Made by a program: the position numbers and the translations under genes. A stretch of DNA of 32,000 nucleotides. Source: Nitrosopumilus sp. b3 (lineage in GTDB: Archaea > Thermoproteota > Nitrososphaeria > Nitrososphaerales > Nitrosopumilaceae). The stretch spans positions 125,174-157,173 of the forward strand of contig NZ_MU078695.1 in assembly GCF_014078525.1 (NCBI RefSeq), read 5' to 3'. The notes below the pieces were generated by a model. The model ran no database searches. It had not been told where the DNA came from and was given only the letters and a program-made list of their open reading frames with translations. Each line of letters opens with the position of its first letter. Position 1 is the first letter of the stretch. Below are positions 5,273-32,000 of this stretch, in pieces.

Positions 5273-5716
5273 ATGAAACGAGGTAGACCTACCAAAAATG
5301 ATGAAGAAAAGATCAAACAGAGAATTTTGGAATACTATGAAAAAGATATTTCGGCAACTGTTGCTGCAAAAGAATTAGGGGTTAACCCCAAAACAATTTA
5401 CAAACATTATAAAAATTGGGATGCTCAAAAATTAGGCATAGATGAAAAAGATTTTCTATCACGCATTAAAAATACAAAAGAAAGATCTATTCAATCTTTA
5501 GAGGAAGACATTATTTCATTATCCAAAGAAATTGACAGGATCGAATTTCTAATGGAAAAGTCATTACAAAATGGAAATATTTTAGAATATGAAAAATTAG
5601 CAAAATTGAAACTAAAGACTATGAATCAAAGAACAAAAACCATATCTGCAAAAATCAATCTTGTAGGAGCACCAACTGCAGATATTTTGATTAATAATGA
5701 GGGGATGTTAGCATGA
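5273..5716 (+). CDS. Terminase small-subunit-like HTH protein
   Basis: 147 aa. N-terminal helix-turn-helix ('ISATVAAKELGVNPKTIYKHYKNW') followed by a coiled-coil-like region. Sits immediately upstream of TerL with a 4-bp ATGA overlap, the classic TerS-TerL order. Confidence 0.5.
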   Translation: MKRGRPTKNDEEKIKQRILEYYEKDISATVAAKELGVNPKTIYKHYKNWDAQKLGIDEKDFLSRIKNTKERSIQSLEEDIISLSKEIDRIEFLMEKSLQNGNILEYEKLAKLKLKTMNQRTKTISAKINLVGAPTADILINNEGMLA

Positions 5717-7488
5717 CGTATAATTTAGTACAATGGAAAAAATCACATGAAAAATTAGCAAGAGTGTATTTGAAGAAAATTAACAAACTAAATCCACTTC
5801 CAATAGACATTATGGATTGGATCAAAGTTGCAAGACCAAAAGTCGAAAATAAGGAGCGAGAATTTCTTACATGTCCATTTTGGATTCCAATTTACAACGA
5901 TCCTCACAATTATCAGATGATAATTGGTGGGCGGCAAATATACAAATCAACTGCATGTACGGATTTTATCGCATGTGAGGCAACTTCGCATCCAGGAATT
6001 CAAGTATGCTATGTAACTCACGACCAAGGAAGTCTATCAGCATTTTCTAAACAAAAATTAAAGATTGGGACATTTTTAGTAAATCCAATTCTTTCAAAAT
6101 ATTTACGCAATCCTGGAAACATAGGAGAGATTTCACTAAAAAATAACAGTACAATCTATCTAGTAACTGACAACTATCAATATCGGCATTTAGAGGGAAA
6201 ATCACCCTCATTATGCATTCTAGATGAAGCTCAATACCAAGATGTAGAATATTTTGGAAGAGTGCATCAAACAATGATGGCAACAAAAGGTAAAGTGAAG
6301 GTCTTTGGGATTGGAGGAGAAGCTGGAAGTCCTTATGAAAAATTATGGAATGAGACAAATCAAATGGAATGGTTTTATGACAATCCAGAATGGCGAGAAA
6401 ATTTACAGTATGATCATAAAGGGTTGATTAAAGATCAGTATCTTGAAGAGTTGTTGAGGGGAAAATGGATTCCACAAAATAAATCTGCAGAATCATTTCA
6501 TGGGTATCACATACCACAATCAATTTTTCCCACAATTCCATTGACAAAACAAGATGCAATTGAAAAATACAAGATTCATCCTAGATTTTCAATTGAATAC
6601 CAAAAAGAGACATTGAAAGATTCAGAATTTAGATCACATGTAACTGGAACGTTTTACAAAAGTCCACATAGACCCATCACAAAAAAGATGATAGATGATT
6701 GTACAGAGTATTATAGATATTTACAACTGTTAAAAGAAGATGAAGTTAAAAAACTGAAAGAAACATTTGGTGATGAGATAACTATTGCAATGGGGGTTGA
6801 TTTTGGTTCAGGCGCTTCCAGTTTTACAGCAATATCAATTATAATTTTATGACACAAATCAAATAGAATACAGATTGCATTTATAGAGAAAAGGCATCCA
6901 GAGAATCAATTAAAACAAGCACAATATATTGCAGATTTATTTGAAAGATTTTCTTGTGATATTGGAGTTGGTGATTTGGGTTATAGTGCAAATCAAGTAA
7001 AAATAATACAAGAGGGAGGATTTTCGGTAGACTCAGGAGAGGCATTCAAAGGTGTAACAAATAATAAATTTTTTGGGTGTCGTACTATTTCAGATAACAC
7101 AAAACCCATTCAAATTTTTGATGAAACAACGGATGAGCACGGAGACCAAGTTGGTAGAATCCAGATAGATAAAACATCAAGCATAGAACTTTTGATTGAA
7201 AGTATGGAGAACATAGTATTTCATCCAGCATACCATAAGGATAAAAATAGAAGCAGGGCAAAGTTAATCATCCCATCAAAGTACGATTATGAAATAGATT
7301 TTCTCTTAACGGATCTTAATAACATAACTCGCAAAGACATTCAAGATATGGAGAAAATTATTTCAGATCCTCGTCAGCGTCCAAGAAAAGAATACAACCA
7401 CCCACCAGATTCTGTAATGTCTTTGATTTATGGAATAGTAGCATTAAAGGTGAAAGATCAAACAAAATGGCACTGGGTGAGCGGATAA
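5713..7488 (+). pseudogene. Terminase large subunit (TerL) of a head-tail virus, interrupted by one in-frame TGA at 6850-6852
   Basis: ORFs 5713..6852 and 6976..7488 are in the same frame. My translation of 6853-6975 has no further stop (HKSNRIQIAFIEKRHPENQLKQAQYIADLFERFSCDIGVGD). Walker A-like 'GGRQIYKST', Walker B 'LCILDEAQ', and RNase H-like nuclease Asp motifs 'MGVDFGSG', 'IGVGDLGY', 'HPPDSVMSL'. Confidence 0.75.
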
Positions 7489-7509
7489 AAGAAATTGTTG
7501 AGCCTATAA

Positions 7510-7535
7510 AGTATCTATTGTATGCATACTATACT
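7510..7535. promoter_or_regulatory. Candidate operator copy 1 (AGTAT-N5-GTATGCATAC-T-ATACT) upstream of nurA
   Basis: The perfect 10-bp palindrome GTATGCATAC is at 7520-7529, preceded by AGTAT with a 5-nt spacer and just downstream of TATAAA (7505-7510). The same architecture occurs at 14191 and 15331. Confidence 0.5.
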
Positions 7536-7657
7536 CATATTTCTTAATACGGGTTCCATTAGAGATTTTTCCATGAAACAAGCTAAAACTCTGATAACTA
7601 ACAGTCAGATTATTACTCTAGGAAAATATCATACCACTCAGAGGGGAGAAATTACAC

Positions 7658-8755
7658 ATGAATGAAGATCCAGTAAAAAGTATGATTGCAGAATTGGGTG
7701 CTCATCTTTCACAAAAAGAGCATTCAGATATTGTTTTAAACAATGGGAATGGAAAGCAGTTTCTCATTGCACCTTCAGAGTTTGTTGAAATAAAATCTAC
7801 AGATGCACCACGTAAGATTGCCTTTGTTGATGGGGGTGATGGTCCATTAGAAGAGTCACCAAACTTTTTAATCACAATTAATCGGGTGTACTTTTCATTG
7901 TTCCAGGGGAAAAATAGAATAAAACCTAAAGAGAATCCACGAGTTCAGTTCTTCTCTTCTGTGACGTCAAATATTCAAACCGAAAATGGTAAAAAAATAG
8001 TTAGTTATGATACAAAGTTATTTCCTCACACTACGGAGGATAAAAAATATCTCCCAGCAGAGTCTGATCTGACTTCAAACACAGAGAGTACTACAGTTTT
8101 GCAAGGCTCAAGATTGAATTCATTAGGAAGACGATTTGCTGAATGGCAATTGGCAATTCATGTTGTAGAGTCAGAACTTGAGAAAGGAGACATGATAGTT
8201 ATGGATGGGTCTCTGCAGACTAATTTTAAAAATGAACTAAAATATGCAAATAGATTGTATGATTTGGCAATAAGTAAGGGAGTAATTGTGTGTGGTTTGG
8301 CAAAGACTAGTAGATTAATTACAGAGTCGGGTCACCCGTTACTTGCACGAGTTGCAGAGATTGCTGAAGACGTTCCATTTGGAAAATGGTATGTCAAAGT
8401 TGCAGAAGAGGTTTCAGGGGATGATAGAGGGTTTATGCTTGCAGTAAAGTTTCATGAAAAATCAAGATACGTATTTAGATTTGAGATTCTTCGTGAACAA
8501 TTTTCTTCTATGAGTCCTGATGAGTTGAACTCAGTTCTTGCTAGTTTGGTTGAGAATTCCCAGGATGTAGCCATGATTGGCTATCCATATGGGGCAATTG
8601 ATGCAGACAGATTTGCTCAAGTTAGGCGTGATGAGTTGGGAATGTATCAAGGGTTTATTCTATCAGAGAAACTCAGAGACCCTATTTGGAAGAGGCTGCA
8701 AAAATATTCTGCTAGTCTGTCAGCTCATGATACACTGAATGGAGTGACTAGTTGA
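7658..8755 (+). CDS. nurA: NurA 5'-3' nuclease
   Basis: 365 aa. Catalytic-type motifs 'IAFVDGG' and 'MIVMDGSL' plus 'GLAKTS' fit the NurA domain. First gene of the nurA-herA-mre11-rad50 cluster, with a purine-rich GAGGGGAG upstream of the ATG. Confidence 0.8.
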
Positions 8756-10332
8756 TGGATGAGATTTCAATTGTAGGTCAAGTAGTTGGCGGAAGTTTTG
8801 GAGACATTGTAATTCGTCAAAAAGCAGGAACCAATCTAGAGATTGGAGATTTGATGGTCTCCGAAGAGAACGGTTCGTTTTTGATTTTACAGGTATTTGC
8901 ATTAGAGTATGGTAGTCAGATTCAAGATAAAATGCAGCAGATGATGTCAGGTGTTAATTTAGAGCAAGGAATAGTTGATGTGAACTTTTATGAACCAGAA
9001 TTTGTAAACTATGTACTAGCTAGAATCAAACCTCTTGCTCGAGTGTATAGAGAAAATAATGATGTAAAGATTCCAAAATCATTACCATCATTTTTTAACA
9101 AATTACGATTAATTGACAAGGATGATTTGAAATTCCTGCAAAAGGAGAAAGAGTCTATCTTTGTAGGACACATTCGAAGTGGCAGTAAGATAATAAAAGA
9201 GGCAGAAGTTTGGCTGCCAGCTGAAGATGTGTTTTCACATCATGTTTTAATTCCAGCTACTACGGGTCGTGGAAAATCAAATTTGGTGAAAACTATTTTG
9301 TGGCATTTGCTTGATGCAAATAAAGTGGGTGCACTTGTTTTAGATGCACACGATGAATACTATGGACGTACAGGACCTGGACTAAAAGATCATAGTAAAG
9401 CAAAAGATAATCTTGTTTATTATACACCATCTCACCCACCAGTTGGCGCAAACAGACTAACAATCAATCTTGAATCAATAAGACCAGATCACTTTGAGGG
9501 AATAATTGAACTATCAGACCCGCAACTTGCTGCAATGCGAATGGCATTTAGAAAAAATCCTAGAGGATGGATTTCTGATTTGATGAAAACCAGTGCAGTT
9601 GATGCAGGAATGGAGCCAGGTGGACGTGCAGAATTTGCTGCGGCAACTTTGATGGTCGTTCAAAGGAAATTACGCCTAATTTTGAGCCTAGATGTGGATG
9701 AAGAGCAGGTAATTGTATCAAGACATGAGGTATTTGATAGTACAACTAGAGGTCTGAATACCGTTGATGACATAGTTCGAGATATAGAGCAGGGTAAGGT
9801 CGTTGTTTTAGATACATCTCGATTAGGTGATGAGGCAGAGTTGATTGTTGGAAATATTATTGCTTCAAAATTATTACAAAAATACAAAGACGCTAAAGCA
9901 ACCGGTGAGCTTGATAGAAAACCAGTTGCCACCATAGTTATTGAAGAAGCACCACGTGTAATTGGAGAGGATGTTCTAAAATCTCGAAATGATAACATCT
10001 ATGCCACCATAGCTAAAGAAGGACGTAAATTCAAAGTGGGTTTGACTGCAATTACTCAGTTGAGCAGTGTGATTCCAAAAACAATTCTTGCAAACATGAA
10101 TACCAAAATTATTTTAGGAAACGAGATGAAGCAAGAAAGAGAGGCAATTATTGCATCAGCTTCTCAAGACTTGTCGGAAGATGACAAAAATATTGCAAGT
10201 TTGGATAAAGGCGAGGCAATTATTTCTAGTATCTTCGTTCCATTTGCAATGCCAATCAAAGTTCCTTTGTTTGAAGATATTGTAAAAAGTAAAGGATCGT
10301 CACCGCAACCTGGTAAGACAAAGGTGTTCTAG
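8752..10332 (+). CDS. herA: HerA hexameric DNA translocase/helicase
   Basis: 526 aa. N-terminal HAS-barrel-like region, Walker A 'ATTGRGKSN', Walker B 'VIEEAP', FtsK/HerA-type architecture. The start (TTG 8752 or ATG 8755) overlaps the nurA stop. Confidence 0.9.
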
Positions 10333-10333
10333 T

Positions 10334-11590
10334 TTGTTATTTGCGCATTTATCTGATATCCATCTAGGTTTTCAAAAGCACGAATCATTGCAGAGAATAG
10401 AGCAACAAGTATTTGAGAAATCGATGGATGAGTGTATTTCTCGCAAAGTAGATTTTGTTTTAATTCCAGGGGATTTGTTTCACGTAAATATTCCGGAGAT
10501 GCGAGTTCAAAAGTTTGCATTTGCAAAGTTTCGTCAGGTCCATGATGCAGGAATTCCAATCTATGTGGTTTATGGTAGTCATGACTTTTCTCCAGTTTCA
10601 AACTCTGTAATTGATCTGCTAGCAGAAGTTGGGTACATCACCAAAGTAACTCGTGCAACAAGTAATGAGGATGATACGATATCTTTGGATTTCCTAGTAG
10701 ATGAGAAAACAGGTGCAAAAATTGCAGGATTGTCCGGACTCAAAGTTGGAAAGGACAGAGAATGGTATGAGAAACTAGATAGGAATTCTTTAGAGGCAGA
10801 GCCAGGATTTAAGATATTCCTATTTCATGGAGGAGTCTCAGAAATGAAGGCTGATTCAGGCATGGATGGGGACCATATGCCACTTTCTTTGCTACCTAAA
10901 GGATTCGCATACTACGCAGGAGGACACATGCACAAATTCAATCATCAGTCATTTGATTCACATCCTAATGTAGTGTATCCTGGAACTCCATTTGCAGGAT
11001 ATCATGCAGATTTGGAAGATAATGCAAATGGGCAAAAACGCGGATTTGTTCTAGTAGAGTTTGATGATGTGGTAAAGTCAGTGGAATTTGTAGAGATTCC
11101 AAACACATCATATGAAATAATTGAAGTTAATGCAGATAACAGAAAATCGGATTCTATTAATCAAGAACTAGTTGAAAAAAGTAAAGACATTGATCCTGCA
11201 AATAAAGTGATAATAATTAAAGTCAAAGGAGAACTAACATCAGGCAAGACTGCAGATGTAGATATTTCTGGGATTAGAGAAGAGTTAAACTCTCGCAATG
11301 CGATGTTCATCAATGTTTCAAAGAACGGATTGACTTCAAAAGAGTATTCAATTACAGAGGCAAAGGGGGCAAACAAAGAAGAGATTGAAACAAATGTGTT
11401 TTCAGAAAACATTGGACAGTTACGATTTGATCATCCAGAATTGTTAGGAGATGAAGGAGTCAAACTTGCAAAAAAGTTGTTGCGAGAGTTAGGACAACCA
11501 GTACTAGTTAATGAGAAGAGAAACGAGTACACTCCAAGAGTTCGTGATAATGCTTTAGCAATTTTAGGATTAGACAAAGATGATTCTTAA
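10334..11590 (+). CDS. mre11: Mre11 nuclease (calcineurin-like phosphoesterase)
   Basis: 418 aa with a TTG start 1 nt after the herA stop. Phosphoesterase motifs 'HLSDIHLG', 'GDLFH', 'YGSHD', 'GGHMH'. Confidence 0.9.
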   Translation: MLFAHLSDIHLGFQKHESLQRIEQQVFEKSMDECISRKVDFVLIPGDLFHVNIPEMRVQKFAFAKFRQVHDAGIPIYVVYGSHDFSPVSNSVIDLLAEVGYITKVTRATSNEDDTISLDFLVDEKTGAKIAGLSGLKVGKDREWYEKLDRNSLEAEPGFKIFLFHGGVSEMKADSGMDGDHMPLSLLPKGFAYYAGGHMHKFNHQSFDSHPNVVYPGTPFAGYHADLEDNANGQKRGFVLVEFDDVVKSVEFVEIPNTSYEIIEVNADNRKSDSINQELVEKSKDIDPANKVIIIKVKGELTSGKTADVDISGIREELNSRNAMFINVSKNGLTSKEYSITEAKGANKEEIETNVFSENIGQLRFDHPELLGDEGVKLAKKLLRELGQPVLVNEKRNEYTPRVRDNALAILGLDKDDS

Positions 11591-14000
11591 TAGCATCATT
11601 ATTGATAACATTAGAAGTTATGAGCACGAAGAGGTAGAGTTTCCTCGAGGGATATCTTTGTTTGAAGGAGATATTGGTTCTGGAAAATCAACTGTACTCA
11701 TGGCAATAGAGTTTGCACTGTTCGGTTTGGGTTCTCAAAAAGCTGAGAGTTTACTTGCAAAAAAGTCTGAAAATGGAAGTGTTATTTTGGATTTTTCAGT
11801 AGACGGTGAAAAATATGAAATTAAAAGAACGTTGCTGAGAAAAAAATCAGGAGTCAATCAAGATCCTAAAAATTCCTGGATAAAGATTGATGGCGAGAAA
11901 GAACCATTATCACCATCTGAACTAAAACAACGAGTGTTACAGATATTAAAATTCAACGAGCCAGCAGATCCTAAAGCTGAGAGTAAAATATTCAGATATG
12001 CTATATTTACGCCTCAGGAAGCCATGAAAGAGGTGCTTTTTGACTCTGCAAAGAGACTAGAGACTATTCGTAAAGCCTTTGGGATTGAAGATTACAGTAT
12101 TGCACACTCTAATGCACGTGAAGTACTTACTGAGATCAAAGCAAAAGCAAGAGTGTTTCAAGAAAGATTCAGTAATATTTCAGAATTAGAGTCAGAGATT
12201 ACAGAATCAAATAAAGGGATAACAGAGACAGAGAAAGTAATTTCTAAAACCAAAGAACAACTTAGTAGTTTAGAGAATAACGAAGTACAAAAAACCAATG
12301 AACTCAAAGAGTTGCAGGCAAAAAACAATGAAAAAATAAAACTAGAATCAAAAAAAGAAAACATTACAGATAAGATAGAATCTGCAAAACAAAATGTTGA
12401 AAAGATAGAGCAAGAGTTTGCAGAAATTGAATCAGAATTAAAAGAGAATAATGAAAGATTTGAAAAATTGATGAGTGTAGAAAAACCTCAAACAGAGAAA
12501 AGCATACCAGATATTATATCTGAAATAAAAAAACTTCAGGAGATTAATGACAAGAAAATAAGACTAGAGACAGAAAAAGAAACAATTACAGATGATCTTG
12601 TAGAACTAAAAGAGAGTTTAGGTGAGAAGGTAAATTCAGACAAGTCAGTTTTAGAGAAATCTCTGCAAGATTTAGAAGAAGAGAAAAAAGGTTTGGAGAA
12701 ATTCTCTGATGAGATAAAGCAACAACAAGATAAAATCAAAGAAGAGCAAATCCAAAAAAATACGCAGAAAAAATCATTAGAACAAGATATTTTAGAATTT
12801 TCTAAACTTGGAAATGCATGTCCTACATGCAAACAAGAAATTACTAAAGAGCATCATCATGCCCTAGTTGATGAAAAACAAAAGCTAGTTAACAGTCTTG
12901 AAAAGGAAATAAAAACAGTTACAGATTCATTTTTTGAATCAAGTTCAAAATCAAAAGAGATTGAATCAAAGATAGATTCCTATGAAGAAGAAATCTCAAA
13001 GATAGAAAAAATCATTCCAGGAATAGAAGAATTTATTGAAAAATCCTCAAAATTAAAAGAAATTGAGGCTGATTTGCAAGAAATTACACCCCCAGACACT
13101 AAAGAGTATGGCGAGAATCCCATAGAGTTTCTATCTGAACTAAAAGACAGAGTTTCAGAGTATAGAAATGCACAAGAGCAGTTACAACAGATAGCACAAA
13201 GAAGACAGAAGATTCAAGAAAAAATAGAATCAGATCAGTCAAGTGCAAATACGTTGTTATCAGGTATTAAAGAAAATGAATCAAAATTAAAAGAAATTGA
13301 AAAACAGTTAGCCAAATTTGGAAGATTGGAAGAAAAAGTACAATCTAAAGAAGATGAACTAGGTGAAATCAGGAAAAAAATTGCTCAAGCATCAGGAATT
13401 ATTGCTGCATCTCAAGAAAAATTAAACAATGAACAAGTCAAAATTTCTCAAAATGAACAAAAAATTTCTGAATCAAAACAATGGGAGGAAAAATACAAGA
13501 AATTTACTCAGTTCCAGGAATGGTTAGAATCATTTTTTATTCCAACCATATCACAGATTGAAAAACAAGTATTATTGTCAATATTGCAGAATTTCAATGA
13601 GACATATACCAGATGGTATTCTATTCTAATTGAAGATCCAACCAAAGAATCCAGAATTGATGAGAACTTTACACCAATTGTGAATCAAGACGGATATGAT
13701 CAAGAGATTGGATTTTTGTCAGGAGGTGAAAAAACAAGTATTGCATTAGCATATAGATTAACATTAAACTCTCTAATGAGAAAAGAGACAGAATCAATGA
13801 AGTCTAATTTATTAATTTTAGATGAACCTACCGATGGATTCTCTAAGAATCAATTGGGAAAAATTAGAGAGTTACTTGATGAATTAAAATCAGAACAAAT
13901 CGTACTTGTCTCTCATGAAAAAGAGCTTGAAACTTATGTAGATAATATTTTTCAAATTTCAAAAGAAAATGGGTTATCAAAAATTTTAAGAATTAATTAA
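11580..14000 (+). CDS. rad50: Rad50 ATPase (SMC-like, zinc hook)
   Basis: 806 aa. Walker A 'GDIGSGKST', a long E/K-rich coiled coil, zinc hook 'CPTC', ABC signature 'LSGGEKT', Walker B 'LLILDEPT'. The start overlaps the mre11 end by 11 nt. Confidence 0.9.
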   Translation: MILNSIIIDNIRSYEHEEVEFPRGISLFEGDIGSGKSTVLMAIEFALFGLGSQKAESLLAKKSENGSVILDFSVDGEKYEIKRTLLRKKSGVNQDPKNSWIKIDGEKEPLSPSELKQRVLQILKFNEPADPKAESKIFRYAIFTPQEAMKEVLFDSAKRLETIRKAFGIEDYSIAHSNAREVLTEIKAKARVFQERFSNISELESEITESNKGITETEKVISKTKEQLSSLENNEVQKTNELKELQAKNNEKIKLESKKENITDKIESAKQNVEKIEQEFAEIESELKENNERFEKLMSVEKPQTEKSIPDIISEIKKLQEINDKKIRLETEKETITDDLVELKESLGEKVNSDKSVLEKSLQDLEEEKKGLEKFSDEIKQQQDKIKEEQIQKNTQKKSLEQDILEFSKLGNACPTCKQEITKEHHHALVDEKQKLVNSLEKEIKTVTDSFFESSSKSKEIESKIDSYEEEISKIEKIIPGIEEFIEKSSKLKEIEADLQEITPPDTKEYGENPIEFLSELKDRVSEYRNAQEQLQQIAQRRQKIQEKIESDQSSANTLLSGIKENESKLKEIEKQLAKFGRLEEKVQSKEDELGEIRKKIAQASGIIAASQEKLNNEQVKISQNEQKISESKQWEEKYKKFTQFQEWLESFFIPTISQIEKQVLLSILQNFNETYTRWYSILIEDPTKESRIDENFTPIVNQDGYDQEIGFLSGGEKTSIALAYRLTLNSLMRKETESMKSNLLILDEPTDGFSKNQLGKIRELLDELKSEQIVLVSHEKELETYVDNIFQISKENGLSKILRIN

Positions 14001-14127
14001 TAATTGATTATTTAAAACAGTGTTTACAATTTAACGAATTGGAAATTTATCATTTTCAAATATCTATAAACATGAATTTTGTTCCTACTGATCATTTCAA
14101 GTGGATATTAAATCAGATACAGGGGTA

Positions 14128-14134
14128 TTTTTTT
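14128..14134 (+). terminator. Oligo-T tract, possible archaeal terminator of the rad50 transcript
   Basis: First run of at least 5 T (T7) downstream of the rad50 stop. Archaeal termination commonly uses oligo-T. No experimental support. Confidence 0.3.
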
Positions 14135-14190
14135 AATATGTAAAATTCCGAGTCTATTCCAGATAAATTTCCAAAAATAGAAAATTAAAT

Positions 14191-14220
14191 AGTATTCAAA
14201 GTATGCATACTATTGTCATG
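14191..14220. promoter_or_regulatory. Candidate operator copy 2 (AGTAT-N5-GTATGCATAC) upstream of a TATA-like element and micro-ORF
   Basis: Palindrome core at 14201-14210. The 30-bp block matches 15331-15360 at 26/30 positions. A TATA-like 'cataataatat' (14224-14234) lies about 25 nt before the ATG at 14253. Confidence 0.5.
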
Positions 14221-14252
14221 TTTCATAATAATATCAAATTCAAACCTAAAAT

Positions 14253-14333
14253 ATGCAAAAACAAGCAATGTATCCAAGAATTATCAGAGAATTCGAAGAG
14301 GATAGAGATGAAGAGCCACTCTTTTATTCCTAA
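14253..14333 (+). CDS. Micro-ORF (26 aa, MQKQAMYPRIIREFEEDRDEEPLFYS), paralog of 15393..15515
   Basis: Not in the ORF track because it is too short. It shares the YPRIIREF core with the 40-aa ORF at 15393. The three nucleotide differences in those 8 codons are all synonymous. Spacing from the TATA-like element suggests a leaderless transcript. Confidence 0.45.
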   Translation: MQKQAMYPRIIREFEEDRDEEPLFYS

Positions 14334-14363
14334 AATGAAGAGCATTTCACACCTTAGGAGAAA

Positions 14364-14591
14364 ATGAATAGGGCAAGAAATCAATCTATCAAAAGAACAG
14401 CAAGAAATTATTGATTCAAAGAAAAACACATCGTAGTTTCAAATCCAGGAACTGGAAAGACCACCACATTATCTCTCAAAGAAATAAAATTACTAACAGA
14501 CGGAGTAAATCCTGAAGATATTCTATGTATCACGTTTACTGAAAAAGCTAAAAAAGAAATGTTTAATGAGATTTATGATAATTCAAATTAA
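14364..14591 (+). pseudogene. N-terminal relic of a UvrD/PcrA-type superfamily-1 helicase (frameshifted and truncated)
   Basis: Frame 1 reads 'INLSKEQQEIIDSKKNTS*' and frame 0 continues 'KHIVVSNPGTGKTTTLSLKEIKLLTDGVNPEDILCITFTEKAKKEMFNEIYDNSN*'. Together these give the UvrD motifs Q, I (Walker A, GTGKT) and Ia (TFT..A..EM). The frame switch is at the A-run near 14419-14426. The gene ends after about 75 codons and overlaps the 3' end of the convergent regulator by 9 bp. Confidence 0.55.
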
Positions 14592-15329
14592 AAATTCGGC
14601 AGCATTTTTGCCCTCTTCAGTAATTTTTATCCAACGATTCCTACCAATCTTTTCAATCTCGATAAACTTCCAATCTTTTTCTAATGGTTCAATGATATTT
14701 TTATCTAAACTTGCAAATCTAGCTTGGGAGTGATTTGATTTTTCAGCATTAACTGTAATGATTCCTTTCTCTTCTGTAATTTCTGCCATCTCTTTTTTAG
14801 TTAGTTTTTGATTTTTATGTTCATGAACTATTTTTAATGCATCTAATAATTTTGGTTTTGGTGTTTGAATCTCATATGTTGGTAATGGAATTGTATCTTT
14901 GATTCCAAAGGATTGTTGTTTACCCTCAAATGCTGCATACTTTTCAGGTTCTGCATAAAATGGTTTTAGATTTTCACAGTGTTTGAGTACCATACATGCC
15001 ATCATGCATGCGATTGCTTGGATTTTAGATCCTGATGCGACATTGACATAGATGTAGTTATTTTTTTCTTCCTCAATGATATCTTTGATTGATTTTATTG
15101 CTTTAAACAAACTCAATCTATCAGCATATGCAATCTTTACTTCTACACCGAGTTTTTTGCATTCTTTTTTTATTTTCTCCAAGTATGGTGCTGAAAGATC
15201 AGTAGTACGATTGTCATGTGATATCAACCACAATTTGTCAGCCTTTGTCTGCTTGAGAGGTATGATGATTCGGTCTACTTCAAAACCTAAAGGGGCAATG
15301 TGAACTCGAAATGTGGCTAGATTAGTCAT
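14583..15329 (-). CDS. Csa3-like regulator: N-terminal CARF-like Rossmann domain plus C-terminal winged helix-turn-helix
   Basis: 248 aa. The N-terminal pattern 'RVHIAPLGFEVDRIIIPL', 'DKLWLIS', 'YIYVNVASGSKIQAIACMMA' is collinear with my recollection of Csa3 ('YFVTMGFNETFLLRLL', 'DSLVIVV', 'IISDLTMGMRMINTL'). The C-terminus 'LTKKEMAEITEEKG...GRNRWIKITEEGKNAAEF' looks like a wHTH. The call is by architecture only; no search was done. Confidence 0.55.
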   Translation of the reverse strand: MTNLATFRVHIAPLGFEVDRIIIPLKQTKADKLWLISHDNRTTDLSAPYLEKIKKECKKLGVEVKIAYADRLSLFKAIKSIKDIIEEEKNNYIYVNVASGSKIQAIACMMACMVLKHCENLKPFYAEPEKYAAFEGKQQSFGIKDTIPLPTYEIQTPKPKLLDALKIVHEHKNQKLTKKEMAEITEEKGIITVNAEKSNHSQARFASLDKNIIEPLEKDWKFIEIEKIGRNRWIKITEEGKNAAEFLI

Positions 15330-15330
15330 T

Positions 15331-15373
15331 AGTATGTACAGTATGCATACTATTGTGATGCTATATAATAATT
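15331..15373. promoter_or_regulatory. Candidate operator copy 3 plus strong TATA box in the divergent regulator/small-gene intergenic region
   Basis: AGTAT-N5-GTATGCATAC with the core at 15341-15350, followed by 'tatataataatt' (15362-15373). That 12-mer is identical to the one upstream of nirK. ATG 15393 lies about 26 nt from the TATA centre (leaderless geometry). The palindrome lies between the TATA and the regulator ATG at 15329. Confidence 0.55.
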
Positions 15374-15392
15374 TCTATGCCTAAGAAACACC

Positions 15393-15515
15393 ATGAATCA
15401 AACAAAAACAATTCAAAATGAAGGATTAAACTCTGGAAATCTTTTCTATCCCAGAATTATCCGAGAGTTCGATGAAAAAGACGAACCAATAATGTATGGA
15501 GGAAGATTTGATTAG
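15393..15515 (+). CDS. Micro-ORF (40 aa, MNQTKTIQNEGLNSGNLFYPRIIREFDEKDEPIMYGGRFD)
   Basis: Paralog of 14253..14333 (YPRIIREF core, acidic DE(E)P-[LI]-[FM]-Y tail). First ORF of a tightly packed plus-strand operon. Confidence 0.5.
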   Translation: MNQTKTIQNEGLNSGNLFYPRIIREFDEKDEPIMYGGRFD

Positions 15516-15517
15516 AA

Positions 15518-15682
15518 ATGAAAATTACTAGAATTCTTCCAAAGTTTCTTGCAAAAACATACCAGGAAGAAGATTTGAGACGTGCAGAAATCCAGCTACA
15601 ATATCACAAAGGTATGATCAGAGTTTGGGAGAAAAGATGCAATGAAGGGCGACAAGAATTACAGAGGTTGAATCAAAAATGA
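15518..15682 (+). CDS. Small hypothetical protein (54 aa, MKITRILPKFLAKTYQEEDLRRAEIQ...)
   Basis: The ATG is 2 nt after the previous stop, and its own stop overlaps the next ATG (ATGA at 15679-15682). Predicted helical and basic. No recognisable family. Confidence 0.4.
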   Translation: MKITRILPKFLAKTYQEEDLRRAEIQLQYHKGMIRVWEKRCNEGRQELQRLNQK

Positions 15683-15891
15683 AACTCGGTAAAATAATCC
15701 AAAACCTTAACATGAAAAATATCAATCAAGGAGTTGACATCTTCAATAAAGCTGTTCAGGATTTCGGAGATTCTATGGATTCACTGAATAAAGAAATGTC
15801 AGATGATATTGAAAAATCAAACAAGGAATCCAAAATTAGAGAGAAAAAGAACAAGGAAAATTTAGATAAAATTTGGGGGAAAAGGAAATGA
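15679..15891 (+). CDS. Small charged hypothetical protein (70 aa)
   Basis: ORF-track entry. K/E/D/N-rich and helical. ATGA overlaps at both ends suggest translational coupling. Confidence 0.5.
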   Translation: MKLGKIIQNLNMKNINQGVDIFNKAVQDFGDSMDSLNKEMSDDIEKSNKESKIREKKNKENLDKIWGKRK

Positions 15892-16283
15892 TCAAAACTG
15901 AATTTTTTGATGATAGTTATAACAAAGTTGAAGAAAGTACAGCAGAGATTATAGTTCAGTCAATTTTTGATAAAGATGGTAATTTACAAAAAAAGATAGA
16001 ATGGACTCCAAAGAAAAAGACAGGTTATTCAAGAACTACTCAGGTAAATGATGATATTAGATACGAATTTCTTTCACAAGATGTAAAAAATCATTATTTA
16101 GATAATGTGCTAGGAATTCAAAGGGCAATTGATTTACTTTGGAGATATCACAGTCAAGAAGAAAGTATTTCTCAAAAAAGAAAAATTCTAAGTTCCATAT
16201 TAAATGGATATAGTAAAATCAACTTTGCAATAATGAGTTTTGATCATGAATTAAAACGAGAAAAAGGAGGTAGTGGGTACTAG
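15888..16283 (+). CDS. Hypothetical protein (131 aa from ATG 15888; the ORF track gives an alternative TTG start at 15873)
   Basis: ATG 15888 forms an ATGA overlap with the upstream stop and is preceded by 'aaagga'. No family recognised. Confidence 0.55.
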   Translation: MIKTEFFDDSYNKVEESTAEIIVQSIFDKDGNLQKKIEWTPKKKTGYSRTTQVNDDIRYEFLSQDVKNHYLDNVLGIQRAIDLLWRYHSQEESISQKRKILSSILNGYSKINFAIMSFDHELKREKGGSGY

Positions 16284-16576
16284 TGTCTGAAACTCTCAAA
16301 GATACCCACTCTAAGAGCCTATCAGAGGCATTTGTAAATTCTTTTGGAAGTTATCCAATTGGGTATGGATTAGGAATAGTTATTTTACCATTATCAGTAG
16401 GATGGATTCAAGAAGACCCGCTAACTGTAAATCTAATAATTACTGGGATTTATGCAACAGTTTCATTTGCCAGGACCTATTTTTATCGTAGAGTATTTGA
16501 AAAATTTGGAATTGATGATAATTTCATCAAACTAGGAATCAAAGGAGTAAAAAAACTCAGGAGATTCAAAAAATGA
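16283..16576 (+). CDS. Small two-TM membrane protein
   Basis: 97 aa. The GTG start shares one base with the preceding TAG. Two hydrophobic helices ('IGYGLGIVILPLSVGW', 'LIITGIYATVSFA') are followed by a basic tail 'RTYFYRRVFEKFG'. The pattern (S..E...N...G ... S..R.Y..RR.F) resembles a small membrane protein family I recall from phage genomes. Unverified. Confidence 0.55.
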   Translation: MSETLKDTHSKSLSEAFVNSFGSYPIGYGLGIVILPLSVGWIQEDPLTVNLIITGIYATVSFARTYFYRRVFEKFGIDDNFIKLGIKGVKKLRRFKK

Positions 16577-16782
16577 CTGAATCAAAACCATCATGTCCTA
16601 ACTGCAATAGTGAGAATGTTGCATTTATCCTATGGGGATATGTTGGAGACATGCATTCAATTGAAGAAGAGTTAGAAAAAGGAGAGATTGTTTTGGGAGG
16701 ATGTATTGTATCTAGTAACGATCCTAAATGGAAATGCAATGATTGCCACCACAGATGGGGGGTTAGAGACGATGATGAATGA
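16573..16782 (+). CDS. Zinc-ribbon protein (CPNC...CNDC)
   Basis: 69 aa. 4-bp overlap with the upstream gene. Two CxxC pairs flank 'GEIVLGGC'. Acidic C-terminus. Confidence 0.6.
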   Translation: MTESKPSCPNCNSENVAFILWGYVGDMHSIEEELEKGEIVLGGCIVSSNDPKWKCNDCHHRWGVRDDDE

Positions 16783-18910: not shown

Positions 18911-19960
18911 CTAACTTACGTTAACAATTCCAGTCATCCAAGGATGAACCATGCAGAAATAATCATATTTTCCTGCTTTCTCAAATGTATGCTCAAAGGT
19001 TGAACCTGACATAAATAATCCAGAGTCAAAGACCCCAGTCACTCCAGCATCAACAGTTCCACTAGTTACAGTATGTGCAGCTGAATCATCATTACTCCAA
19101 GTAACTGTTTGTCCAACAGATACAGTAATCTCGTAAGGCAAGTAACACTCGTTTGTTTCTTCACATCCCGGAATTGCAGCACCTGCAGGAATTGAGACAA
19201 TAGACGTTGTTTCTGTTTCTACCATTGGTTCGGGTTCTGGCTCCATTACAGGTTCTGGTTCTGCCATTGGTTCAGGGTCTGGCTCTTCAATTACCATCAT
19301 CTCTTCAATTTCATTAACAACAACTTTGCCAGTCATCCAAGGATGAACCATGCAGAAATAATCATATGTTCCTGATTCGTCAAAAGTAAATTCAAAAGTT
19401 GAACCTGACATAAATAAACTAGAATCAAATATTCCATCATGTCCATCAGAGATATTTCCACTAGTTACAGTATGAGCAGCACTGTCAGGATTATTCCAGA
19501 TTACAGTGTCACCCACAGAAATTGAAATTGAATAAGGCAAGTAACACTCGTTTGTTTCTTCACATCCAGGTACTCCAGAACCTTCAGCAATGTTTACTGT
19601 ATGAATTCCAGATGTCATTGGAGCAGACATAGTTGGTTCAGGGGTTGGCTCTACCATTGGTTCAGGCTCTGCAATTTCTTCAGGTTGAACTCTTGGTTTA
19701 ACCTTAGGATCATCAACACTGCATTCGCCGTCATGGGCTAATTTTACATCAGCAGCGTTTAACATGCATAAATTACCATAAGTTTCTCCATCAACACCAC
19801 ATACAGGGGCATATTCCCTTGTACAAGCAGTTGGTTTTTCAACTGAAACTATTCTTGGTTGAATTACATCATCAGGGTTCATTGCAATGAATCCCATTGT
19901 GATTGCAGCTAAAACACCAACAATTGCTATTACTCCATATGCAAAATTCATCTCATCCAC
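18911..19960 (-). CDS. Membrane-anchored Kazal-like domain fused to two tandem amicyanin/plastocyanin-type cupredoxin domains
   Basis: N-terminal TM, then 'CTREYAPVCGVDGETYGNLCMLNAADVKLAHDGEC' (Kazal-like PVCG.DG.TY.N.C motif). Two roughly 70% identical domains follow, each ending 'YDYFCMVHPWMTG' (C-x2-H-x2-M type-1 Cu ligand loop with an upstream 'AAHTV' His). PEPEP-rich linkers. Confidence 0.75.
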   Translation of the reverse strand: MDEMNFAYGVIAIVGVLAAITMGFIAMNPDDVIQPRIVSVEKPTACTREYAPVCGVDGETYGNLCMLNAADVKLAHDGECSVDDPKVKPRVQPEEIAEPEPMVEPTPEPTMSAPMTSGIHTVNIAEGSGVPGCEETNECYLPYSISISVGDTVIWNNPDSAAHTVTSGNISDGHDGIFDSSLFMSGSTFEFTFDESGTYDYFCMVHPWMTGKVVVNEIEEMMVIEEPDPEPMAEPEPVMEPEPEPMVETETTSIVSIPAGAAIPGCEETNECYLPYEITVSVGQTVTWSNDDSAAHTVTSGTVDAGVTGVFDSGLFMSGSTFEHTFEKAGKYDYFCMVHPWMTGIVNVS

Positions 19961-24181: not shown

Positions 24182-24693
24182 ACAAACATTCAATCATTAC
24201 AGGAATTGCAATAATAGTAATTGTGATTCCTTTTTTGGTTTCTGGATTAAACATTCTTGGAACACAGACATTAGAGTATAGATGGGGAGGTCCTGGTCAA
24301 TTTAGTTTCTTTGCAATGTCCAATCATGGGGATATTGAATTCTGCAATACAATGCCGTTTTGGACCAGCTTTCAAAAATACGAGGTCGCATTATTTTATG
24401 ATTCAAAGCACATAGGTTCATTTGTAGTAAATCCTTTGATAATCAATCCATTATCATCACAGGTACAATCAGGGATTTTTACATCAGAAGAGATTGCAGC
24501 TACACAGCATGTCTTTATGACTTTGGATTTTGAGTTTGATGGTGGAGATATCAGACTAGATCCAAACAAATTCATCACAGTTATTCAAATCGATACTCCA
24601 ATTATAGGAATGATTCCATATTCAACTACAACGCAGATATCAGGATTTGATTTTGACAAAATAATGAATTCAGATAACTTGTCTTGTGATTAG
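24178..24693 (+). CDS. N-terminally anchored membrane protein
   Basis: 171 aa. N-terminal TM 'IITGIAIIVIVIPFLVSGL'. Translationally coupled to 23522..24181. Confidence 0.5.
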   Translation: MNKHSIITGIAIIVIVIPFLVSGLNILGTQTLEYRWGGPGQFSFFAMSNHGDIEFCNTMPFWTSFQKYEVALFYDSKHIGSFVVNPLIINPLSSQVQSGIFTSEEIAATQHVFMTLDFEFDGGDIRLDPNKFITVIQIDTPIIGMIPYSTTTQISGFDFDKIMNSDNLSCD

Positions 24694-25556
24694 TTTTTAC
24701 TTTTACTTGCTTTAGAAATAAGTGCTAAAATCACTCCAACAGAACCTGCAACACCAAATGCTACAAGTAAGGAAATTACCATTTGTTTACCTACACCTTG
24801 TGGAGTTGTCACAGATGGTTTTGGAGTTGAGTCAAGTACACATGCTCCATCTTTTAGAATGGTTCCTGGTCCACATCTCTCATCAAGTACACATGCTCCA
24901 TCTTTTAGAATGGTTCCTGGTCCACACTGAACTTTTGGTGTTGTTACAGTTGGTTTTTCCTCAACTTTAGGTGGCGTCACAATAGGTGTTTCTTCTGGGG
25001 TTTCTTCTGGGGTTTCTTCTGGGGTTTCTTCTGGGGTTTCTTCTGGGGTTTCTTCTGGGGTTTCTTCTGGGGTTTCTTCATCTGGAATTGTTGTTCCACC
25101 AAAGGTTGAACCAATAATTTCAATTTCTTCAGTACCTGCAGGTAAATCAATACTTAGAGTTCTACTTTGAGTAGTAGTTTCAGTTTCAGTAAAAGATGGT
25201 TCATCCCCATCAACTAAAATAATAAAATCATCATCTAAGCCATCAAAAGTTGAATCAAAGAAAGAACGCTCAAATGTAATATCTAACATCCCATCAGAAT
25301 CTGGGACATCTACAGTTAGAATCAATGAAACAAAATCAAGATCAGCTTCAATGCCATCAAGAGTCATTCCAGTTGCAGTGTAATCAATATCATATGACGT
25401 ACCTTCAATATCAACAGATATTGTTTCAGCATATACCAAAGCTGAAGCAATTATTGTAAATAGTACTAATCCAAGTGAGAGTTTCAACAAAGAATTAACA
25501 TTAGGAAAATGCCTTAGTTTGTCAGATTGCATTTTATCCATATTCATATTTTGCAT
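24690..25556 (-). CDS. Surface protein of the same paralog family, with an (EETP)8 stalk, a duplicated Cys-loop module and a C-terminal TM anchor
   Basis: Body motifs 'SYDIDYTATG', 'FIILVDGDE' and 'EEIEIIGST' match 3392..4006. These are followed by EETP x8, 2x 'CGPGTILKDGACVLD' and the TM 'MVISLLVAFGVAGSVGVILALI' with a basic tail. Confidence 0.65.
   Translation of the reverse strand: MQNMNMDKMQSDKLRHFPNVNSLLKLSLGLVLFTIIASALVYAETISVDIEGTSYDIDYTATGMTLDGIEADLDFVSLILTVDVPDSDGMLDITFERSFFDSTFDGLDDDFIILVDGDEPSFTETETTTQSRTLSIDLPAGTEEIEIIGSTFGGTTIPDEETPEETPEETPEETPEETPEETPEETPEETPIVTPPKVEEKPTVTTPKVQCGPGTILKDGACVLDERCGPGTILKDGACVLDSTPKPSVTTPQGVGKQMVISLLVAFGVAGSVGVILALISKASKSKN
24832..24926 (-). repeat. 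Tandem duplication: identical 44-bp blocks at 24832-24875 and 24883-24926 (period 51 bp), encoding CGPGTILKDGACVLD twice
   Basis: Read directly from the sequence. In frame with CDS 24690..25556. Confidence 0.9.
24985..25080 (-). repeat. Eight tandem 12-bp units (GGGGTTTCTTCT on the plus strand) encoding EETP x8
   Basis: Read directly. The first and last units each carry one substitution. In frame with the CDS. Confidence 0.95.
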
Positions 25557-31844: not shown

Positions 31845-31883
31845 AATAATTTTTTTAAAATTATGATTTTTTAGAGGTTTTGT

Positions 31884-32000
31884 TTATTCTTTCTTTGGTG
31901 CTTCTTTACCTGGTTCTTCTTTCTTTGGTGCTTCTTTACCTGGTTCTTCTTTCTTTGGTGCTTCTTTAGCTGGTTCTTCTTTCTTTGGTGCTTCTTTAGC
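31884..32000 (-). CDS. 3' end of a CDS truncated by the window edge, encoding the decapeptide repeat EP(G/A)KEAPKKE
   Basis: The minus-strand frame is open from the window edge to TAA (complement of 31884-31886). The repeat is in frame. Too short in this window to appear in the ORF track. Confidence 0.5.
   Translation of the reverse strand, partial: AKEAPKKEEPAKEAPKKEEPGKEAPKKEEPGKEAPKKE
31887..32000 (-). repeat. 30-bp tandem repeat, 3.8 copies, running off the window
   Basis: Units at 31887-31916, 31917-31946, 31947-31976 and 31977-32000 (partial). Units differ only by acc versus agc (Gly versus Ala on the coding strand). Confidence 0.95.

Follow-up and report, generated by a model that had tools for sequence, protein, structure and literature searches.

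Csa3a and Related Regulatory Systems

Transcription from the nurA-mre11-rad50-herA promoter of Sulfolobus islandicus is activated by the regulator Csa3a, which recognises an imperfect palindrome directly in front of that promoter (PMC5587795), and further Csa3a sites have been described at csa1-cas1-cas2-cas4, nurA-herA, dpo2 and genes of the DNA damage response (PMC5587795, PMC7515695). The present analysis concerns a 23-bp motif found three times in a 32,000-nucleotide (nt) stretch of Nitrosopumilus sp. b3 (contig NZ_MU078695.1, positions 125,174 to 157,173; the whole stretch is called the window below): in front of a nurA-herA-mre11-rad50 operon, behind rad50, and between the gene of a Csa3-like regulator of 248 amino acids (aa) and a divergent operon of small genes. 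An earlier note on this DNA, made from the sequence alone, had taken the coupling of a ligand-sensing regulator to this machinery to be undescribed, which is too strong a statement since Csa3a at nurA-mre11-rad50-herA is a precedent (PMC5587795, PMC7515695).

Csa3a and the window regulator share the same architecture, a CARF domain plus a winged helix of the CARF3 clade, and while Csa3a binds its palindromes directly upstream of the target promoters, a conserved dyad is present here at a predicted position of -62 to -40, both at the regulator gene and at the candidate targets. The differences are nevertheless considerable. The csa3a gene is located in a type I-A CRISPR-cas locus and its main targets are the adaptation cas genes and CRISPR leaders, whereas the candidate regulon described here also takes in a UvrD-nuclease together with a PIN protein and a micro-protein, and no cas genes or CRISPR array were seen in the window or in the loci compared. 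The sequence similarity between the two regulators is remote, the window protein belonging to a different subfamily (HFX_2341_N/DUF6293), and the operator is unrelated in sequence to that of Csa3a, far more strictly conserved and placed at a fixed distance from the TATA box.

HFX_2341 of Haloferax mediterranei has the same pair of Pfam domains as the window regulator (HFX_2341_N and DUF6293_C). It is CRISPR-unlinked in its genome, vertically inherited and Csa3-like by structure prediction, and it has been described as a repressor that acts globally on transport and cas genes (PMC11434293). It differs from the window regulator in length (308 aa against 248 aa), and neither a binding site nor a link to herA/nurA has been reported for it. 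The bacterial LexA/SOS system offers a likeness of design rather than of descent: an autoregulated factor with a dyad operator before its own gene and before recombination or repair and nuclease genes, and few sites per genome. The window regulator belongs to another protein family and has no LexA/S24 peptidase, its promoters are of the archaeal type with a TFB recognition element (BRE) and a TATA box, its candidate operator is upstream of the core promoter where that of LexA lies over it, and its signal is presumably a small ligand perceived through the CARF-like domain and not RecA-stimulated self-cleavage. The Orc1-2/TFB3 response of the Sulfolobales, the only well-studied archaeal DNA-damage regulon, likewise acts through a conserved promoter motif before repair and DNA-transfer genes (PMC6061795, PMC6101594), but both its motif and its regulators, which are paralogues of Orc1/Cdc6 and of TFB, are unrelated, and no involvement of orc1-2 or tfb3 was seen here.

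No prior description of the motif, operator or regulon was found in the literature searched for ammonia-oxidising archaea. The Nitrosopumilaceae are among the most abundant archaea of the ocean and, to our knowledge, almost nothing is known of their gene regulation or of their responses to DNA damage and viruses. The locus yields a precise 23-bp candidate operator, a named candidate regulator and target operons conserved in at least five genera. For the HFX_2341_N/DUF6293 domain family no binding site would have been proposed before this one, and it would extend the Csa3a finding, that is the coupling of a CARF-type sensor to the end-resection machinery, outside the Sulfolobales and outside a CRISPR context. 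It also raises the question of which signal is read by such sensors in CRISPR-less cells.

A 23-bp Motif in Three Copies

The palindrome GTATGCATAC occurs three times in the window with no further copy (0.01 expected by chance), and none of 100 shuffled sequences reached that count. The extended pattern AGTAT-N5-GTATGCATAC has exact matches at these three positions, each time on the + strand, and the constant 5-nt spacing described in the earlier note was thereby borne out. Two relaxed searches of the window each returned a single extra match in a coding region, which is the chance level. The extended similarity claimed for copies 2 and 3 also stands, at 78% identity across 58 nt including a 31-nt core with four mismatches, and the block in common is longer than had been thought: AGTAT-N5-GTATGCATACTAT, 10–11 nt, a TATA-like box and an ATG. 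At all three copies this ATG is found 62–63 nt from the first A of the motif (7573, 14253 and 15393).

The complete motif of 23 bp comprises three AGTAT half-sites, two of them in the palindrome AGTAT-GC-ATACT and the third as a direct copy 9–10 bp upstream. With the ATG taken as +1, the operator extends from -62 to -40 with the centre of the palindrome near -47.5, followed after 2–3 bp by a predicted BRE that is not purine-rich (-37 to -31) and by a TATA box at about -30 to -23. It had been proposed that copy 1 lies between a TATAAA hexamer (7505–7510) and the transcription start. That hexamer is not conserved, while a TTAATA located 14 nt past the palindrome is invariant in 12 genomes; copy 1 is therefore upstream of its own TATA box, in the same manner as copies 2 and 3.

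Conservation at the Regulator Gene, at nurA and Across Genomes

A sample independent of the motif was obtained by retrieving 80 metagenome loci through the regulator protein only (80–90% identity), of which 78 had enough upstream DNA. The motif or a variant of it with 1–2 nt changed was found 0–3 nt from the start codon in all 78 orthologues; 62 carry the strict motif, 67 a perfect palindrome, and the remainder have their 1–2-nt variants at the same place. Among the 54 unique upstream sequences the gap between AGTAT and the start codon is again 0–3 nt. Identity is at least 95% in the operator columns, against variable sequence in the spacer, past the TATA box and even in the first codons of the regulator. 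On this alignment the upstream region of the regulator is a clean phylogenetic footprint. Many of the orthologous proteins (entries P0006–P0120) are annotated at 255 aa, called from an ATG inside the palindrome GTATGCATAC; given that the conserved MTNLATF start follows the operator at a variable distance of 0–3 nt, these N-terminal extensions are mis-annotations.

The second footprint is at nurA. The palindrome is present at all 12 nurA starts available, together with the invariant TTAATA. Two of these starts (in loci L057 and L093; loci are denoted by L numbers) entered the set through a different site; in both the palindrome is perfect and the change is in the first half-site (AGCAT and AGTAG).

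The pattern AGTATNNNNNGTATGCATACTAT (18 specified bases) was scanned in one genome per species, covering 185,579 species and 596 Gb, for which the expected number of chance matches was estimated at about 17 in the whole collection. At least 80 loci were found; among those listed, 68–71 belong to the Nitrosopumilaceae (Nitrosopumilus, Nitrosarchaeum, Nitrosotenuis, Nitrosopelagicus and Nitrosotalea), and seven are true chance matches by their appearance. In the archaeal loci, TATATAATAAT or a variant follows 14 nt past the palindrome and then, in nearly all, an ATG at +62/63. The strict sites number 1–3 per complete chromosome among the matches listed, too few for a dispersed repeat; this rarity and the placement at promoters speak against the generic repeat that the earlier note had considered. 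Among 203 unique sites, the motif adjoins a regulator orthologue's start codon at 100 and not at the remaining 103, and the ATG at +62/63 is found at 84 of the former and 69 of the latter. The operator columns remain at least 95% identical while neighbouring promoter and spacer positions drift, across genera with regulators only 51–60% identical. On this comparative record the motif is a genuine and strongly conserved cis-regulatory element.

Three loci of the Nitrosopumilaceae type lie on contigs binned to other phyla and carry the thaumarchaeal regulator or small genes. These contigs, binned as metagenome-assembled genomes of Salipiger (L011), Chloroflexota (L053) and Phycisphaerae (L061), have the thaumarchaeal operator; the regulator is also encoded on L011 and L061, and L053 is closely like the Nitrosopelagicus locus L009. 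They are probably mis-binned.

A viral origin of the motif was considered and rejected. The strict pattern occurs in 12 IMG/VR contigs, which were judged to be unrelated coding or phage sequence: ten of them form, together with L031, one family resembling tailed phages, where the match falls within coding sequence of the opposite strand (open reading frame (ORF) 5560–5994 of L085), and the other two carry an unrelated intergenic AGTATTGAT repeat. No regulator gene was found among the viral contigs searched. The phage-like contigs L084 (4960–5020) and L088 have an intergenic array of AGTAT half-sites with a 9-nt spacing (AGTATTGAT AGTATTGAT AGTATGCATACTATTGATAGTATGG); their base composition and genes are not thaumarchaeal-looking, and the half-site and spacing in common were treated as a coincidence.

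The Candidate Regulator

The protein encoded next to copy 3 was described in the earlier note as a Csa3-like regulator with a winged helix-turn-helix, and profile matches to both an N-terminal, Rossmann-like CARF sensor domain and a C-terminal winged helix agree with that description. The Pfam matches are HFX_2341_N (E = 6.6e-36) and the DUF6293_C winged helix (E = 3.6e-25), Csa3_N scores 35.6 bits against a cut-off of 27, and the PADLOC profile CARF3--CARF (PDLC01847) covers residues 7–247 with E = 1.7e-73. The HFX_2341 equivalog NF051475 of NCBIfam scores 19.9 bits against a cut-off of 500, with the N-domain alone aligned; since this is far below the cut-off, the regulator is not an orthologue of HFX_2341 in spite of the Pfam domain families in common. 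Judged by these profiles, it is a CARF3/Csa3-like protein of the HFX_2341_N/DUF6293 family.

In the AlphaFold model, residues 159–247 form helices and a beta-hairpin wing with a predicted local distance difference test (pLDDT) value of about 90, and the N-domain is unreliable, with a mean pLDDT of 59 from a shallow alignment of homologues 78–92% identical. The two top Foldseek matches are the Csa3 structures 2wte and 6wxq, at E of about 0.01 and template modelling (TM) scores of 0.31–0.35 with this poor model, and corroborate a Csa3 fold weakly; a PDB search with the regulator sequence gave no match at E <= 1. The most conserved parts of the protein among orthologues of 52–91% identity are the helix at 197–219 and the wing. 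No CRISPR-like repeat array was found in the 32-kb window, and no cas genes were found among the scanned neighbours within about 8 kb, the profile scan covering ORFs up to 17 kb.

Genes Behind the Operator

The coordinates of the operator copies, their promoters and the surrounding genes are given in Table 1. The four genes behind copy 1 have the Pfam matches expected of a HerA-NurA-Mre11-Rad50 resection operon (NurA, the HerA central domain DUF87, Metallophos and SMC_N/Rad50 zinc hook); they are adjacent, co-oriented, overlapping or abutting, and occur in the same order in relatives. In several genera the regulator gene adjoins the end of rad50.

Table 1. Operator copies, promoter elements and genes of the window.
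Feature	Position	Strand	Remarks
Helix-turn-helix (HTH) protein, 147 aa	5273–5716		precedes the terminase-like gene
Terminase-large-subunit-like gene	5713–7488		PHROG 675, E = 1.8e-18
Operator copy 1, AGTATCTATTGTATGCATACTAT	7510–7532	+	upstream of the nurA operon promoter; palindrome 7520–7529
TATA-like box CTTAATAC	7543–7550	+	nurA promoter; 14 nt after the palindrome; predicted start about 7572–7573
Nucleotide-invariant block GATAACTAACAGTCAGATTATTACTCTAG	7593–7621	+	in the nurA leader of about 85 nt; 12 genomes
nurA-herA-mre11-rad50 operon	7658–14000	+	behind copy 1; nurA 7658–8755, herA 8752–10332, mre11 10334–11590, rad50 11580–14000
Operator copy 2, AGTATTCAAAGTATGCATACTAT	14191–14213	+	palindrome 14201–14210; TATA-like CATAATAATA 14224–14233
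Micro-protein gene, 26 aa (MQKQAMYPRIIREFEEDRDEEPLFYS)	14253–14333	+	first cistron behind copy 2
UvrD + PD-(D/E)XK nuclease remnant, frameshifted	14380–14594	+	residues 5–75 of about 888; tblastn E = 1e-23
Regulator, 248 aa	14583–15329	-	CARF-like N-domain and C-terminal winged helix; CARF3/Csa3-like
Operator copy 3, AGTATGTACAGTATGCATACTAT	15331–15353	+	palindrome 15341–15350; 1 nt from the regulator start codon
TATATAATAAT then TTTCT	15362–15376		TATA-like TATATAATAAT 15362–15372; putative bidirectional TATA box; BRE-like AGAAA on the regulator strand
Small-gene operon behind copy 3	15393–16782	+	families recur behind the operator in relatives
Micro-protein, 40 aa	15393–15515	+	first cistron of the copy 3 operon
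Small proteins of 54, 70 and 136 aa	15518–15682, 15679–15891, 15873–16283	+	copy 3 operon
DUF7220 membrane protein	16283–16576	+	copy 3 operon
Zinc-ribbon protein, 69 aa	16573–16782	+	copy 3 operon

The statement of the earlier note that copies 2 and 3 precede homologous micro-ORFs held in so far as these encode a conserved micro-protein, and it was incomplete for copy 2, which also heads a truncated helicase-nuclease pseudogene. A post-rad50 site such as that of copy 2 is also present in L055, L057 and L060, and in L055, L095 and L096 it heads the micro-protein and an intact UvrD helicase-nuclease of 888–893 aa (Pfam UvrD-helicase 3.2e-42, PDDEXK_1 1.2e-8). The remaining part of the helicase gene has apparently been lost from the window in a deletion that reaches as far as the regulator gene's 3' end.

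The micro-protein family (about 26–43 aa, consensus ..F[FY]PRIIREF[ED]D.DEPM.YGG) is found at 75 sites as the first cistron behind most operators and has no Pfam match. Up to six synonymous codons are in use for the invariant residues P, I, I, R, E and F, and this synonymous variation shows selection on the micro-protein itself; the family is missed by automatic annotation. Clustering of the downstream ORFs additionally returned a 74-aa family, DUF7220 (48 sites), a 57-aa family (34), a PIN-domain protein (31 sites; Pfam PIN 3.5e-9), a 74-aa MTEQ family (21), the nurA operon (9) and a 425-aa secreted protein (9). Neither NurA nor the PIN protein, the small proteins or the terminase-like gene matched a known defence system in PADLOC. 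The candidate target set, as annotated from domain matches, is functionally coherent in that it brings together NurA/HerA/Mre11/Rad50, a UvrD plus PD-(D/E)XK helicase-nuclease and a PIN protein, which supports its reading as a regulon.

The nurA leader holds a block, GATAACTAACAGTCAGATTATTACTCTAG, that is invariant at the nucleotide level, including the third-codon positions of an overlapping 30-codon ORF (7573–7665), and among 172 loci it was found only upstream of nurA. The ORF was considered as a conserved peptide and rejected: it has an in-frame TAG in L057 and a GTG start in two genomes, and it is the nucleotides that are invariant. A consensus RNA structure was not predicted from the leader alignment either (0 predicted pairs).

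A Model of Regulation and Its Alternatives

Taken together, these observations suggest that the adjacent 248-aa regulator probably binds the motif. We also consider likely, if with less assurance, the full model in which the motif is the operator of this regulator and serves for activation of the downstream promoters and autorepression of the regulator gene. Of the regulon of one dimeric factor proposed in the earlier note, the shared and conserved operator at the promoters of nurA, the regulator and the micro-ORFs is found as described; binding, the direction of control and the ligand are what we infer from it. The site would control three units of the window: nurA-herA-mre11-rad50, the micro-protein with the truncated helicase-nuclease, and the divergent operon of micro-protein and small genes. 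The regulator would act from a fixed position just upstream of a weak BRE and TATA box, and the downstream promoters would be activated when the sensor domain is in the right state, set by a small ligand. The operator promoters may give rise to leaderless or near-leaderless transcripts; the TATA-like boxes stand at a leaderless-type distance from the conserved ATG in more than 150 sites.

At the 100 regulator-divergent sites the putative TATA box is near-symmetric, and the TTTC that comes after it gives a BRE-like AGAAA when read on the regulator strand. The operator of copy 3 would thus stand between a shared TATA box and the start codon of the regulator, with the palindrome over the predicted start of the regulator transcript, an arrangement that points to autoregulation and most likely to autorepression. 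As a rule known from archaeal factors such as Ptr2, TFB-RF1, SurR and TrmBL1, a position upstream of a weak BRE/TATA usually goes with activation and one between the TATA box and the start with repression. An activator role at the downstream promoters is favoured because of this positional rule and by analogy with Sulfolobus Csa3a.

Several points weigh against this model. The assignment of the motif to the regulator is guilt by association, well supported as such by comparative genomics. The sample independent of the motif consists of close orthologues (the homologous proteins listed are at least 78% identical), and distant ones are ascertainment-biased: the motif is also found at orthologues down to 51% identity, but those loci were retrieved through the motif. 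In two Nitrosotalea loci (L054 and L068) no regulator gene was seen within 8 kb of the site. The half-site centres of the 12-bp palindrome are separated by no more than about 7 bp, an unusual spacing for a winged-helix dimer. The rigid spacing and the 45-nt promoter similarity could in part be due to duplication of a promoter cassette and not to selection acting independently at each site. Finally, the only studied member of the HFX_2341_N family behaves as a repressor (PMC11434293), which is contrary to the activator half of the model.

This last point leads to the strongest alternative, a pure repressor in an SOS-like circuit, in which the protein would sit on the operator beside the BRE at all promoters and over its own start until a damage or infection signal, received through the CARF-like domain, removed it and so derepressed the repair and nuclease genes as well as the regulator gene itself. 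We regard it as a tentative reading in its own right, and when repressor-only logic is set against the activator model it comes as a close second, nearly as likely. Apart from the many genes repressed by HFX_2341, with which the window protein has its N-domain family in common (PMC11434293), the operator lies so near to the predicted BRE that a bound protein could occlude TFB, and autoregulated palindromic operators before repair genes are a classical design, as in LexA. Archaeal repressor sites, however, usually overlap the BRE/TATA or the start, whereas here the site is upstream at every target promoter; the predicted BRE of these promoters is not purine-rich, suggesting dependence on an activator, and at nurA/herA promoters the nearest functional analogue so far studied, Csa3a, activates (PMC5587795).

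According to a second alternative, the cis-element is real but is read by another trans factor, such as a transcription factor with its gene elsewhere or a TFB/TBP paralogue specific to this class of promoter, and the regulator gene is merely one of its targets. Thaumarchaea have many TFB paralogues, and the rigid TATA spacing in about 200 sites, the conserved 45-nt promoter and the two Nitrosotalea sites mentioned above would fit such a specialised promoter class. We consider it unlikely: TFB reads the BRE at about -33 to -38 and not a 23-bp dyad at -62 to -40, the link to the regulator start codon holds in 78 of 78 orthologues and about half of the unique sites (100/203) abut the regulator gene, and no other DNA-binding gene was consistently close to the sites in the loci compared.

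It is very unlikely that the copies are only paralogous promoter cassettes, spread by local duplication in a variable island and alike through common descent and basal function with no dedicated regulator. Copies 2 and 3 do share both promoter and micro-ORF, and in many genomes the sites are clustered within a few kb of one another, yet the operator columns stay nearly invariant across genera while adjacent positions drift, the nurA copy is like the other two in nothing but the operator and its TATA spacing, and the dyad symmetry and repeated AGTAT half-sites would be superfluous for a basal archaeal promoter. It is improbable in the extreme that the repeats serve a mobile element carrying the nurA-rad50 block for recombination or attachment: copies 1 and 2 flank it in direct orientation with a terminase-like gene beside copy 1, but every site has the promoter geometry, the block keeps its synteny and is vertically conserved from genus to genus, the regulator was absent from the viral contigs searched, and a search for an integrated virus or mobile element found only the HTH and terminase-like genes, with no integrase beside the sites among the ORFs scanned.

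A further view is speculative and on present grounds doubtful: that CRISPR-poor marine ammonia oxidisers possess an inducible response to damage or infection, a counterpart of SOS built from a CRISPR-ancillary sensor module. A CARF-type sensor would there read a nucleotide second messenger and act through one invariant operator to switch on HerA-NurA-Mre11-Rad50, the RecB-like helicase-nuclease, the PIN nuclease and the micro-protein, of which the conserved acidic form of 40 aa might be a new effector or co-regulator.

The Terminase-Like Gene and Repeats of the Window

The gene upstream of copy 1 had been taken for a relic of a terminase large subunit (TerL). It is instead a conserved terminase-like gene whose frame is broken in the window by a single TGA (6850–6852, ..IIIL*HKS..) where relatives have TGG; in L049, L069 and L072 the gene is intact, with about 590 aa and about 80% identity. 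It is always found after the 147-aa HTH gene and directly upstream of the nurA operator, and no capsid or portal genes were seen near it in the stretches examined. It looks like a conserved and possibly domesticated gene and not like a decaying prophage remnant.

Three repeats were observed elsewhere in the window. An internal repeat at 18911–19960 consists of two 270-nt copies with 78% identity in an ORF of 349 aa that has two CMVHPWMTG motifs, a 12-nt tandem repeat of eight copies occupies 24961–25091 in the ORF 24690–25556, and a 15-nt tandem repeat is found at the end of the window (31851–31998).

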